Below, one piece after another: positions 49,689-61,195 of a stretch of 64,000 nucleotides of DNA (position 1 is its first letter; each line of letters starts with the position of its first letter). The position numbers and the translations under genes were made by a program. The notes under the pieces were generated by a model. That model was not told the DNA's origin. It did not search any database and worked only from the letters and a program-made list of their open reading frames with translations. Origin of the DNA: Eledone cirrhosa (Eukaryota); assembly GCA_964016885.1 (NCBI GenBank), contig OZ024743.1, forward strand, positions 19,468,001-19,532,000, given 5' to 3'.

Positions 49689-50391
49689 TGTAGCTCTGAT
49701 TCACATGAATCCTCGAGCGCTTGCCACACATATCGGACGTTGATTTTCGTTAATTCCTGAGCTGAAATACGATTCTCGCTAATTTATATTTGTATTAATC
49801 TCCAGAGTCTAGCTATTGAGCAGTTAATTTTATTGATTTTTTTAGTTGCTTCTATTGACTGTTGAATAGCTCTGTTATATTTAACCATTCTGTCGATGCT
49901 TTATTCGATTTGTGATATTTTGCATTCTCGCAATATTATACACAACTGAATCATTCGCCTAATCGAGGTGTTGCCTCCCTTGCTGAACCCCACGTGGGTC
50001 AGTAATAGCCACACTTATGTATAGCATTTTGGAGCAAAACCCGTTGATAACACGGCTTCCTTGTTTAATCATCTTAGCAGAAGCCCAACATTCTTTATGT
50101 AGGCGGACAGTACCTGATTTTGGAGTCGCAGAAACCAATGCTGGATTTTACCATCAGTCCAGGGTCCGGGAAAGTATCAACACATATATTTTTATTGTTT
50201 GACCCGAATTACTTGGTCGTTTGTTTTGGCTGTGCGGATGACATGTTTAACCATCATCTCAGTGTGTTTGGCCCTTAACGTATGTTGTAGCTCTGATTCA
50301 TATGAATCATCGAGTGCTTGCCACACATATCGGACGTTAATTTTCGTTAATTCCTGAGCTGAAAACGATTCTCGCTAATTTATATTTGTAT
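49689..50391 (+). mobile_element. Non-coding mini-element: 597-nt unit, ~106-nt terminal redundancy
   Basis: 49689-49795 = 50286-50391; both ends in (TA)n; second partial copy at 57480-57714 (-). Confidence 0.88.
50040..50170 (+). ncRNA. Type I hammerhead candidate with U3-A8 core and branched stem II
   Basis: CCCG-TTGATAA-ca-CGGCTTC...GGAGTCG-ca-GAAA-CC-aatg-CTGGA..TCCAG-GG-TC-CGGG; predicted cut after GTC 50166. Confidence 0.6.
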
Positions 50392-50764
50392 ATATATATA
50401 CGTATATATAAATATATTATATACATATATATATACATATATATATATACATATATATACATATATATATATACATATATATACATATATATATATACAT
50501 ATATATATACATATATATATATATATATACATATATATATTTATATATACATATATCTATACATATATATATATATGTATATATATATATATATATATAA
50601 ATATATATATATGTATATATATATGTATATATATATATGTATATATATATGTATGTATATATATATATATGTATATATATATGTATATTTATATATGTAT
50701 ATATATATGTATATATATATATGTATATATGTATATATATATATTTATATGTATGTATATATAT

Positions 50765-50832
50765 ATATTGTTATACTTTGGGAGGGTCATGTTGCCAATA
50801 AGAATCTTGCTAAACAAATTCAGAAACGAAAT
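50765..50832. mobile_element. 68-bp micro-insertion made of both termini of the 42991-44750 PLE family
   Basis: ATATTGTTATACTTTGGGAGGGTCATGTTGCCAAT-AAGAA-TCTTGCTAAACAAATTCAGAAACGAAAT; AAGAA shared by both halves. Confidence 0.85.
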
Positions 50833-51042
50833 ATATATATATATGTATATGTATATATATATATGTATATATATATATAATTATATGTATATATATATAT
50901 ATATGTATATATGTATATATATATATTTATATGTATATATATATATATATATATATATATATATATATATATATATATATATATATATATATATATATAT
51001 ATATATAATATAAGATCAAAAGATGGTTAAAGGAGTTCAATA

Positions 51043-51113
51043 TATTTTATTATGCGCATTTCAAAAACAAACATCATCAAACAATAATATTTGTGTTTTC
51101 ATCAGATAAAACA
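51043..51113 (-). ncRNA. Type I hammerhead ribozyme
   Basis: Inverted copy of 57259-57329. Confidence 0.85.
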
Positions 51114-52346
51114 GGAGAACATGATATGAAGGCTAAAAAAACACTTGTTGATAGTGCAGTTTTAAATCAACATATGAAAAGTGGTTTTAGATTGATGTGT
51201 GATATTGGGAAAAATATTTTATTTAGAGAGGGGGGGAGAGAAAAGGATGAAAAGGGAAGGAGATGAGAGGGAGAGATGGGTGATAGAGAGAAAGAGATAG
51301 TTTTTATAACAGAGAGGAGATATATTTTATATAGAGGGGTTGAAAACCGTTGGAAGATACTGTATAAATTAAAAATTTTGAAAATTAACGAAGGGAGGAT
51401 ATGTGCGAGGAAAAAATATATTATATTTAGGGAGGGGTGGGGGTGGAAAGGATGAAAAAAAGGGGAGGAGATGAGAGTGAAGGTGGAAAGGGAGAGATGG
51501 GTGATAGAGAGAAAGAGATAGTTTTTATAACTGAGAAAAAGATATAATGTTTTAATATAGAGAGGTTGGGAACCGTTGGAAGATAATGTATAAATTAAAG
51601 GAATTTGAAAATTAACGAAGGGAAATTATGTATGGAGATAGAGAGAAAAAAATAACGAAGGGAGATTATGTATGGAGATAGAGAGAAAAAAATAATAATT
51701 GTGGGTGAATATTCAAAAGGAGAAATGTAGGAATCTTAAAATTAGCAAAGAGAAAATGTTTATGTATAGGATTTGAGAAAAATGTGAAGTTAAAGTTTTT
51801 ATATTGAATTCATATGTATTAATAATGAGTTCGTTGATGGGGAGAAAAAAAATAATAATAATAAATTAAGGATGAAATTGAGATTAAAAAGATTTATGAT
51901 AGAGAGAAAAAATAATAATGATTGCGGATGAATACTCAAAATGTCAAAAACAAATGTTATTGTTTTACGAAGAGATATAATGAGGGTGATGAGTAAACGG
52001 GTATTATAGAGTGTATAATGCCCTTTAAAGTAAGGTAGATGGGTATATTTTAAAGAATATATGAGTATATATTAAAAAAAATATATATAATAATAAATTA
52101 AGGATGAAATTGAGATTAAAAAGATTTATGATAGAGGGAAAAAAAAATAATAATGATTGCGGATGAATATTCAAAATGTCAAAAACAAATGTTATTGTTT
52201 TACGAGAAGATAGGATGAGGTAAATGAATAAACGAGTACTATAGAGTGTATAATGCCCTTTAAAGTAAGGTAGATGGGTATATTTTAAAGAGGTGTATGT
52301 ATATGTGCCTTTGAGAAAAGATTCTAAATTGATAAAGAATTGAATA

Positions 52347-59142: not shown

Positions 59143-59641
59143 ATATATATGTATGTATATATATATATATACATACATATATATCTATACATATATATAT
59201 ATATATACATGCATACATATATATGTATATATATATATGTATATATATATATATATATATATATATATATATGTATATATATATATATATATATATATAT
59301 ATATATATATATATATATATATATATATATATATACATGCATACATATATATGTATATATATATATGTATATATATATATATATATATATATATATATGT
59401 ATGTGTATATATATATGTATATATATATATATATATATATATATGTATGTGTATATATATATGTATATATATATATATATATATATATGTATGTGTATAT
59501 ATATATGTATATATATATATATATGTATATATATATATATATATATATATATATATATATATATATACGTATATATATATATATATATATATATATACGT
59601 ATATATAACTACTTTTTTTAGCCGTTGCTCGCACCAACCGG

Positions 59642-59698
59642 AGGTATATGGTCTTTAAAGCGATGAAATGCCTATGATAGTTGGAAGATCACTGATGA
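59642..59698 (+). ncRNA. Candidate non-circularly permuted hammerhead ribozyme
   Basis: AGGTA-TA-TGGTCTTT-n8-GAAA-TGCCT-n10-GAAGATCA-CTGATGA. Confidence 0.55.
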
Positions 59699-60254
59699 AG
59701 GACAAACTTTTTTCATATGTAACCCATTTGCAACTCTGCAACTCCCTTATTATCATATTTACACATATTTTTCCTCTGCTGCTACACCGTCTTTTTCGTT
59801 CTATGTAGCTTTACCCTTTCTAGCAGTCTCTTTCTCTGTTAGGCTCTTCCTCACCCTTCACTCACTCATTCTCTGTCATTACCTCTCCTCCTCCTCTTTC
59901 TTCCTGTTTGACCTGTGAGTAATTCTTTTCTCTCACATTCTCGGCCAAGCTGGTCGGAATTTTTTCTCTCTCGTCTACGATTTCACAGAACTTATGTTTA
60001 CCGAATTCGCAGACCAGACCCCTTCTTCCTCCCGTTAGACCTGTGCGAAATTCCTTCCTTGTTCACATTTCAACCAGGTTTGATGGTCTTTATTCTCTCG
60101 TTCACGATTTCACCGAACTTAAATTCATAGAAATATGGGACTTGTCTCCTTCTTCCTCACTTTCTGTTGCTTCACCATTTTGTTTCTTTACCCTCGTGTC
60201 CCCTTTATTTACGCGTCCCAACGACTTTTTTTAGCCGTTGCTCGCACCAACCGG

Positions 60255-60311
60255 AGGTATATGGTCTTTGAAGCGATGAAATGCCTATGATAGTTGAAAG
60301 ATCACTGATGA
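60255..60311 (+). ncRNA. Candidate non-circularly permuted hammerhead ribozyme (second copy)
   Basis: AGGTA-TA-TGGTCTTT-n8-GAAA-TGCCT-n10-AAAGATCA-CTGATGA. Confidence 0.55.
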
Positions 60312-60536
60312 AGGACAAACTTTTATCATTTGTAACCCATTTGCAACTCCGCAGCGCCCTTATTATCATATATATATATATACGTATATATATATATATA
60401 TATATATATATATATATATATATATATATATATATATATATATATATATATATATATATATATATATATATATATATACGTATATATATATATATATATA
60501 TATATATATATATACATATATATATATATATATATA

Positions 60537-61195
60537 TGGATGTGGATGCATTCATGTATATGTGTGTGTCCGCATGTATCTGTGTGTTTCTAAATATATT
60601 GTTCATAATTCCCTCTAGTCGAGTAATCTTTGAAGTGTGGTGACTGCTGGAAAGCTGCCATTACTCATACTTCTCGCCCCCTTCACCACCTCTTCTACGG
60701 CTTCGATATAAATACCCCCTCCGCCTCCGTGGTATTTTCTTCGGGGTTATAAGAGGCTTAGCTCTGTTTCTTGACCGTTGTATCACGTGACTATCTCCCC
60801 CTCCGCCTTTTGGGATTCTTTCTCACATCATATAGACGCGTTCTTGAAGCTAGTAAAACTAGGTATCCTCTTGATAAGTCGGCAGACCTCGCAAAAACTC
60901 TATATCTTTATGGTGTATTGTTTTTGTTTATGCCACGAAACTACGTAGTCGAGGAATCTAGGAGCAGTTTAGGTATGATACATTTTATTACTAATTATAT
61001 CTAAATGTTTTTTCTCTCTTCATAATGTACTTTTAGCTCTGATACTGGTTCAGTCTAATTCAACCGGATTGGTCTGTCCCAGTCATTCATAGAGCAACAT
61101 CGGTAAGGTTGGCACCATTAACTCACGGTTGGATGTAGATGCATTCATGTATATGTGTGTGTCCGCATGTAACTGTGTGTTTCTAAATATATTGT
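60537..61195 (+). mobile_element. Non-coding mini-element: 593-nt unit, 66-nt terminal redundancy
   Basis: 60537-60602 = 61130-61195; both ends in (TA)n; internal HHR. Confidence 0.85.
60866..60955 (+). ncRNA. Type I hammerhead candidate with U3-A8 core
   Basis: TCCTC-TTGATAA-GTcGGC...(GCAAAAAC/GTTTTTGT hairpin)...GCCAC-GAAA-CTACGTAG-TC-GAGGA; predicted cut after GTC 60950. Confidence 0.72.

Follow-up and report, generated by a model that had tools for sequence, protein, structure and literature searches.

Probable short non-autonomous Penelope-like elements in Eledone cirrhosa, two of them with a predicted hammerhead of non-circularly permuted order

A stretch of 64,000 nucleotides from Eledone cirrhosa (assembly GCA_964016885.1, contig OZ024743.1, positions 19,468,001 to 19,532,000 of the forward strand; hereafter the window, in which all positions are counted) contains six short repeats, units A to F, beside autonomous Penelope-like elements (PLEs). 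A preliminary description had taken all six for retrozymes, i.e., non-autonomous retroelements with a hammerhead ribozyme (HHR). The locus raises the question of what these units are and how they are copied. We find that they are very probably non-autonomous parasites of PLEs, and that the motif in C and F, judged from its sequence, is a non-circularly permuted hammerhead with its blocks in the order cleavage site, GAAA, CUGAUGA (S-G-C). The explanation as a whole, that PLE proteins copy the units in trans and that C and F have a predicted S-G-C hammerhead, is regarded as probable.

The window has a G+C content of 32% and abundant (TA)n. All six units show a partial tandem layout, with direct redundancies of 66–206 nt that are 92–98.5% identical, so that each locus holds 1.1–1.4 units (Table 1). 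The lengths given earlier (597, 647, 613, 593, 412, and 574 nt), the redundancy, and the extent of a little over one unit were all borne out, except that C starts at 59607 and not at 59611. The 3′ end lies in (TA)n in all six units. Insertion within (TA)n, as first described, is true of both sides in five; F, whose repeats are 92% identical to each other, has unique DNA as its 5′ flank. Copies of A and of B have common 3′ ends and different 5′ ends. Since these independent copies have the TA end in common, it was taken as the 3′ side, which fixed the sense strand. With copies counted in the window and in public sequencing runs, A, B, C, and F are dispersed multi-copy families, while for D the window contains a single copy. 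Among the units, similarity (z 19.6) was seen only between C and F, as had been noticed before.

Table 1. Units, ribozyme motifs, and Hydra-clade PLEs of the window
Feature	Position	Strand	Description
Unit A	49689..50391	+	597-nt unit and 106-nt redundancy (95% identical); TA on both sides; no ribozyme found
Unit A, second copy	57480..57713	-	5′-truncated; same 3′ end in (TA)n; 97–98% identical
A-like 3′-end remnant	2590..2650	+	short, diverged (76%); flanked by TA runs
Unit B	58324..59138	+	647-nt unit and 168-nt redundancy (93%)
Unit B, copy	28033..28238	+	5′-truncated; 3′ end of B; 86–89% identical
Unit C	59607..60367	+	613-nt unit and 148-nt redundancy (95%); multi-copy family
Unit D	60537..61195	+	593-nt unit and 66-nt redundancy (97%); structured; no ribozyme found
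Unit E	28665..29209	+	412-nt unit and 133-nt redundancy (98.5%); internally deleted Hydra PLE
Unit F	21883..22657	-	574-nt unit and redundancy; relative of C; 134-bp deletion in 3′-most copy
S-G-C motif, copy C1	59642..59698	+	predicted cut after 59648
S-G-C motif, copy C2	60255..60311	+	intact core; predicted cut after 60261
S-G-C motif, copy F1 (3′ copy)	21961..22017	-	intact core
S-G-C motif, copy F2 (5′ copy)	22401..22457	-	core change G5A
Canonical type I HHR in B	58783..58858	+	predicted cut after 58854; single copy at the locus
Type I HHR, Hydra-type, in E	29049..29099	+	U4A in core; stems I 5, II 3, III 5 bp
Inverted 5′ segment of E	28511..28664	-	copy of 28962–29115; typical PLE inverted pseudo-long terminal repeat
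Retained Hydra PLE open reading frame start in E	28842..28940	+	Met at profile position 1
Autonomous Hydra-clade PLE	11556..16146	+	uninterrupted open reading frame 12369–14588; type I HHR at 15960
5′-truncated Hydra-clade PLE	51005..57454	.	palindrome; open reading frame part 54156–56027; type I HHR at 57267

The preliminary description had called the motif of C and F hammerhead-type; this is right as to the core, but the non-circular permutation had been overlooked. In both units GAAA stands upstream of CUGAUGA. In copy C1, stem III is formed by 59642–59647 and 59668–59673 and stem I by 59649–59656 and 59684–59691, followed by the core at 59692–59698. Stem III has 6 bp, with A15.1-U16.1 and the AUA triplet, and stem I has 8 bp in all four copies. 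The catalytic set (CUGANGA, GAAA, and U-H) is intact in three of the four, the exception being F2. In the usual hammerhead numbering, the core changes G5A and U4A are both expected to be harmful.

Matches to the S-G-C pattern without mismatch were absent from 12 shuffles of 54 kb, both strands being scanned. Over stems I and III, 56 of 56 cells pair, as against 36–52% in slid controls, and two pairs of stem I have changed on both sides; in stem III the change is one-sided only. In 152 unrelated loci (32, and 120 of about 190) that had the core together with a forced stem III, stem I never exceeded 3 bp. The scans for the pattern in metagenomic and viral collections, which supplied these loci, gave chance matches only among those listed. 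A type II reading of the same motif was tried and rejected, as stem I would have only 4 bp in C and the reading fails in F. We hold it highly likely that the S-G-C fold is conserved. Its self-cleavage is predicted with moderate confidence, the balance being slightly in favour.

Hammerheads of this order are known as type-SGC ribozymes (Eckert 2023, PMC10085705). They were found in metatranscriptomes, were reported absent from genomes of known organisms, cleave at 0.007–0.19 per minute, and require all four stems. The motif of C and F resembles them (the HRIMA-1 motif and its variants) in block order, in the full core, and in the crossing of stems I and III. It may also have their helix linking the stretches that flank the CUGAUGA block; in C and F 4–7 bp are possible there in all four copies, in differing registers. 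Unlike them, it lies in an animal retroelement and mostly lacks stem II, and its cleavage is a prediction. Because the type-SGC ribozymes that were tested required stem II, we class the motif as SGC-like and not as a member. No publication connecting PLEs, Naiads, retrozymes, or octopus with the S-G-C order was found, in a search that covered few subscription journals and no bioRxiv supplements.

The Naiad PLEs offer a second comparison. They are described as targeting (TA)n and as having no canonical HHR, but sometimes 'half cores', whose second half may lie on either side (PMC8557442). Passages of the supplement of Craig 2021 were compared by eye; they covered 53 of the 54 consensi at their 3′ ends, together with 58 of 62 CTGATGA, 23 of 23 CTGACGA, and 17 of 21 of three related words. 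On this basis, the S-G-C order was recognised at the 3′ end of 11 of the 54 consensi (Chem-3, Amil, Aacu with one mismatch, Anas, Movir-2, Plae, Smim, EuTe, Obim, Ovul, and Esco), with a stem III of 5–13 bp and a stem I of 4–8 bp. The stem sequences of these 11 fall into eight unrelated types. We read the 'cores' and 'half cores' of Craig 2021 as S-G-C folds in some families. In the same passages nematode Naiads have the ordinary hammerhead order, and for four Darwinula families, Ptep, and Bfor not every block could be placed by eye. C and F are like Naiads in (TA)n targeting, in partial tandems, and in a 3′ module which, by eye, is common to them and to Naiad_Obim and Naiad_Ovul (a hairpin just upstream, its loop rich in T, and the beginning of the second linker), and unlike them in having no open reading frame (ORF). 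We give an even chance to the prediction that many Naiads, together with C and F, process their RNA by an active, pseudoknotted S-G-C hammerhead from which stem II has mostly been lost.

The bivalve and hemichordate Naiads, as far as these passages go, have another conserved 3′ motif in common that is unlike a hammerhead. Its loop, we presume, recalls ribozymes of the hepatitis delta virus (HDV) kind.

An HHR-type motif had been ascribed to every unit, and this did not hold. Descriptor scans were run on all six units for all six hammerhead block orders. A canonical type I HHR was found in one unit, B, with 4 bp in stem I, 5 bp and a long loop in stem II, and 2 bp in stem III. The type I HHR of E has the change U4A, which is also present in its inverted copy, and a tandem of two type I HHRs was not seen at any of the six loci. 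An S-G-C-like fold in the redundancy of B (58425, with G5A) was put aside as chance in AT-rich sequence, its total being reached by 1 of 20 shuffles. In A and D no ribozyme was found. At the gathering score Rfam gave no match in the window, and at E ≤ 10 its ribozyme families gave none in A, D, or C; in E-value mode the best 150 of 301 matches were of microRNA type, driven by microsatellites. An HDV-like descriptor found nothing in any unit. It may be noted that A and D are both structured (fold z −2.7 and −3.9, respectively).

The absence of a credible ORF, as first described, was confirmed so far as coding for reverse transcriptase (RT) or endonuclease (EN) is concerned, which is lacking in all six units; E, however, keeps the beginning of a Hydra PLE ORF. 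The initial 32 codons of E match profile positions 1–32 of the Hydra N-terminus (38.8 bits, iE 1.3e-12; blastp E 8e-5). In the intact Hydra PLE of the window, the site of the 3′ end lies about 50 nt before the ATG, and in E the ATG follows the same point by about 45 nt. From the inverted 5′ segment, the position of the ATG, and the 32-codon match, we conclude that E is an internally deleted Hydra element. A likeness of its later codons to the Hydra C-terminus, seen by eye, was not supported by a C-terminal hidden Markov model (HMM) and was dropped. Compared with the Hydra-clade PLEs of Craig 2021, E has the same N-terminus, an HHR of the same layout, and (TA)n insertion, but has lost RT and EN and has U4A in the HHR core.

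The intact PLE has an inverted 5′ pseudo-long terminal repeat (pLTR) at 11556–12286, a direct redundancy of 50 nt, and a 3′ end in (TA)n. Its ORF aligns with the RWK-like motif (RWR), DKT, CxCX5C, CxxC, CxH, and a C-terminal EN (motif list according to Craig 2021), its HHR is canonical, and the element is a candidate helper for E. The inverted 5′ segment (as in E), direct redundancy, and a (TA)n 3′ end make up a layout common to the units and this PLE. The truncated Hydra PLE forms, at 51005–57367, a palindrome of 6.4 kb with arms 99.5% identical. Its left arm begins 87 nt before the 3′ end; the corresponding figures for the inverted segments of the intact PLE and of E are 88 and about 95 nt. 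Further Hydra PLE 3′ ends, with type I HHRs of long stem II (at 40881 and 18688), lie on the minus strand at 40688–42700 and 18503–19170.

The spread of C was followed in public runs (one of the six units, in four of the nine runs listed), contig matches being a measure of family spread and not of expression. Run X1 had 3047 contigs matching C, 611 of them at ≥99% and 934 at 95–99%, and the share running on into unlike sequence was 0. There were 69 such contigs in X4 and 23 in X6 (share 0.09 each). In X7, a RAD (restriction site-associated DNA) library, 5701 reads matched and the share was 0.96. The internal 3′-end site of C, at 59754, was bridged by one X4 contig, and among the loose contig ends were (TA)n behind 59718 and a flank resembling that of F. 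C has an internal duplication of about 130 nt (70%) within 59893–60163; joints in the public contigs skip or repeat it, which shows that unit length varies in the family. At 59670 the majority letter in the runs is A for G, turning a G-U pair of stem III into A-U. For B, the share of its words in runs of organism A was 0.24–0.27; its small shares in X4–X6 were left out of account, and no RNA run was among those listed for it. B and C were found in independent runs bearing three organism labels.

These observations suggest the following course of events. A PLE protein would bind multimeric or re-ligated unit RNA in trans, and its GIY-YIG nuclease would nick (TA)n. The RT would start at an internal AT-rich site, run back across the ribozyme site (twice in C), and stop after 1.1–1.4 units. 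In C and F, stems I and III would form a pseudoknot, and the weak stem II may be replaced in function by a short helix that joins the stretches preceding and following the core. If C were cut after 59648 and after 60261, the monomer set free would measure 613 nt and could circularise; the formation of such unit circles is predicted tentatively and seems doubtful. In published work, a PLE RT initiates within its own RNA and the nuclease favours AT-rich DNA (PMC11167929).

Several points weigh against this explanation. The S-G-C structure was derived from the same sequences that were used to test it, and its covariation score, from four sequences in two families, was reached by 12 of 500 shuffles. 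Stem II has 1 bp in C1, C2, and F1; only F2 has 5 bp, with a 2-nt offset. The Naiad comparison was made without a tool alignment, and motifs broken across lines or distant from the end would have escaped it. For 43 of the 54 consensi the S-G-C motif was not seen in the passages compared. Stem II was clear by eye in one of the eight stem types (Plae), with about 3 bp in Smim. Cephalopod Naiads have been described as long inactive (PMC8557442), and in the window no ORF of Naiad type was recognised. Scans of A and D over the six block orders gave no signal above shuffles, and protein and terminus comparisons found no parent element for either, D having its one copy in the window. No record of the public runs that matches C spans the whole unit, and 9% of the matching contigs in X4 and X6 run into unlike sequence. 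Lastly, the PLE Poseidon inserted in vitro without need of HHR cleavage (PMC11167929).

In a different account of the same elements, the motif of C and F would be either a relic that no longer cleaves or a structure for protein binding, and a read-through multimer, transcribed from tandem master loci, would be the template, with no circles being formed. The near absence of stem II in three of the four copies would be expected on it, as would the core changes G5A in F2 and U4A in E, and the layout recurs in A and D, where no ribozyme was detected. Moreover, uncleaved RNA was the dominant substrate of the Poseidon PLE (PMC11167929), and of nine published Xenopus retrozyme dimers one was cleaved. 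It must be set against this that CUGANGA, GAAA, U-H (H not being G), and A15.1-U16.1 are kept, by eye, in 11 Naiad consensi from four phyla. That the full catalytic set has been kept despite unrelated stem sequences points to selection on the core and is hard to explain otherwise. We consider the relic account unlikely.

Less likely still is that the units are mere fragments of pLTRs or 3′ untranslated regions (UTRs) of longer coding PLEs, the redundancy having come from repeats within the UTR. E does keep PLE coding sequence, the ends of C and F resemble Naiad ends, and the 3′ UTR of the palindromic PLE contains tandem repeats of 235 bp. However, after the internal copy of its 3′ end every unit returns to itself within 412–647 nt without entering an ORF, neither Hydra nor CCHH-type PLE proteins match A, B, C, D, or F, and the X1 contigs on C never run on into unlike sequence. 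For A, B, and D no homology to PLE termini was found in blastp and HMM comparisons. A minus-strand open frame of 74 aa in A was rejected as a gene, as it has no Pfam match and is frameshifted in the main copy.

Local tandem duplication or misassembly of a TA-rich region is very improbable, even in a region full of microsatellites and palindromes (among them the 6.4-kb inverted repeat at 99.5%) and with D found once, since redundant copies differ by 1.5–8%, A, B, and C/F have further copies in the window that end alike on the 3′ side, and B and C are present in the independent runs; for A, B, C, and F the dispersed copies refute it.

Parasitism on PLEs thus remains the preferred reading, and the earlier proposal of several non-autonomous, TA-targeting families is upheld by the Hydra PLE layout, the dispersed copies of A and B, and the multi-copy family of C. 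A single PLE machinery for all of them did not stand, as E derives from a Hydra PLE while C and F resemble Naiad 3′ ends. Nor are all six HHR retrozymes, there being no HHR found in A and D and no unit with tandem type I HHRs. Like the animal non-LTR retrozymes (PMC7229834; 10.64898/2026.07.22.740005), the units are short, non-coding, multi-copy (A, B, C, and F), and probably related to PLE pLTRs; their lengths fall inside the published range, and B has a type I HHR. Protein coding is restricted to the 32 codons in E. Unlike retrozymes, they have 1.1–1.4 units per insertion, and no locus combines two units that both have a complete type I HHR; type I HHRs are confined to B and, as the U4A variant, E, and two intact cores occur only in C, in S-G-C order. 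The lack of a ribozyme in A and D, the permutation in C and F, and the ORF start in E are further differences. The supposed convergence on about 600 nt is unremarkable, since published retrozyme units measure 51–972 bp, with a mean of 650 in ray-finned fish (Li 2026, 10.64898/2026.07.22.740005). Non-autonomous Chlamys elements, e.g., MRC1 (Craig 2021), also form pLTRs and have 3′ ends in common with autonomous partners; these are algal, and no ribozyme is described for them.

Other repeats surround the units. A PLE fragment in the window has its closest named relatives in Octopus bimaculoides (55%) and O. vulgaris (50%). Fragments of 3′ parts from a non-Hydra PLE clade (CxxC linker, GIY-YIG) lie at 43052–44746 and 20990–21845; the former folds back on itself and has a type I HHR at 44561, and a related terminus is found at 50770–50840. 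A 148-bp self-inverted element (49411–49558), with unique DNA on one side and (TA)n on the other, has a minimal type I HHR at 49495 with a palindromic stem III. One short inverted-repeat element occurs in two opposite orientations inside TA-rich arrays (17735–17910 and 19590–19760). The 3′ parts of a non-LTR RT element at 16581–17683 and 62012–63155 are 97.7% identical and each ends in (TA)n, and other RT remnants lie at 5700–6921 and 35683–37606. A repeat of about 220 nt, resembling a short interspersed nuclear element (SINE), is present in tandem and dispersed copies (31636–32652, 39107–39592, 47608–47727, and 3048–3221); we take it to be the octopus tRNA-derived SINE.

A retrozyme-like community and its unit length are of a kind already known, and a community of PLE parasites of about 600 nt would by itself be of modest interest; what is new is the predicted S-G-C hammerhead in it. 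Non-circular permutations have been known since 2023 from environmental RNA of unknown hosts. They are now found in multi-copy animal retroelements, and the S-G-C order gains a genomic home and many natural variants. If the reading is true, animal genomes would have yielded their first non-circularly permuted ribozyme, with a spread over cnidarians, an acanthocephalan, arthropods, and cephalopods; C, for its part, would be a retrozyme making 613-nt circles by the S-G-C fold. If the motif is active with almost no stem II, it would represent a new minimal hammerhead architecture. It follows from the find that ribozyme censuses which use type I–III descriptors undercount animal genomes. The apparent lack of hammerheads in Naiads had served as an argument that HHRs are dispensable passengers of PLEs; on the same reading, that reported lack would be in part an artefact of the search.

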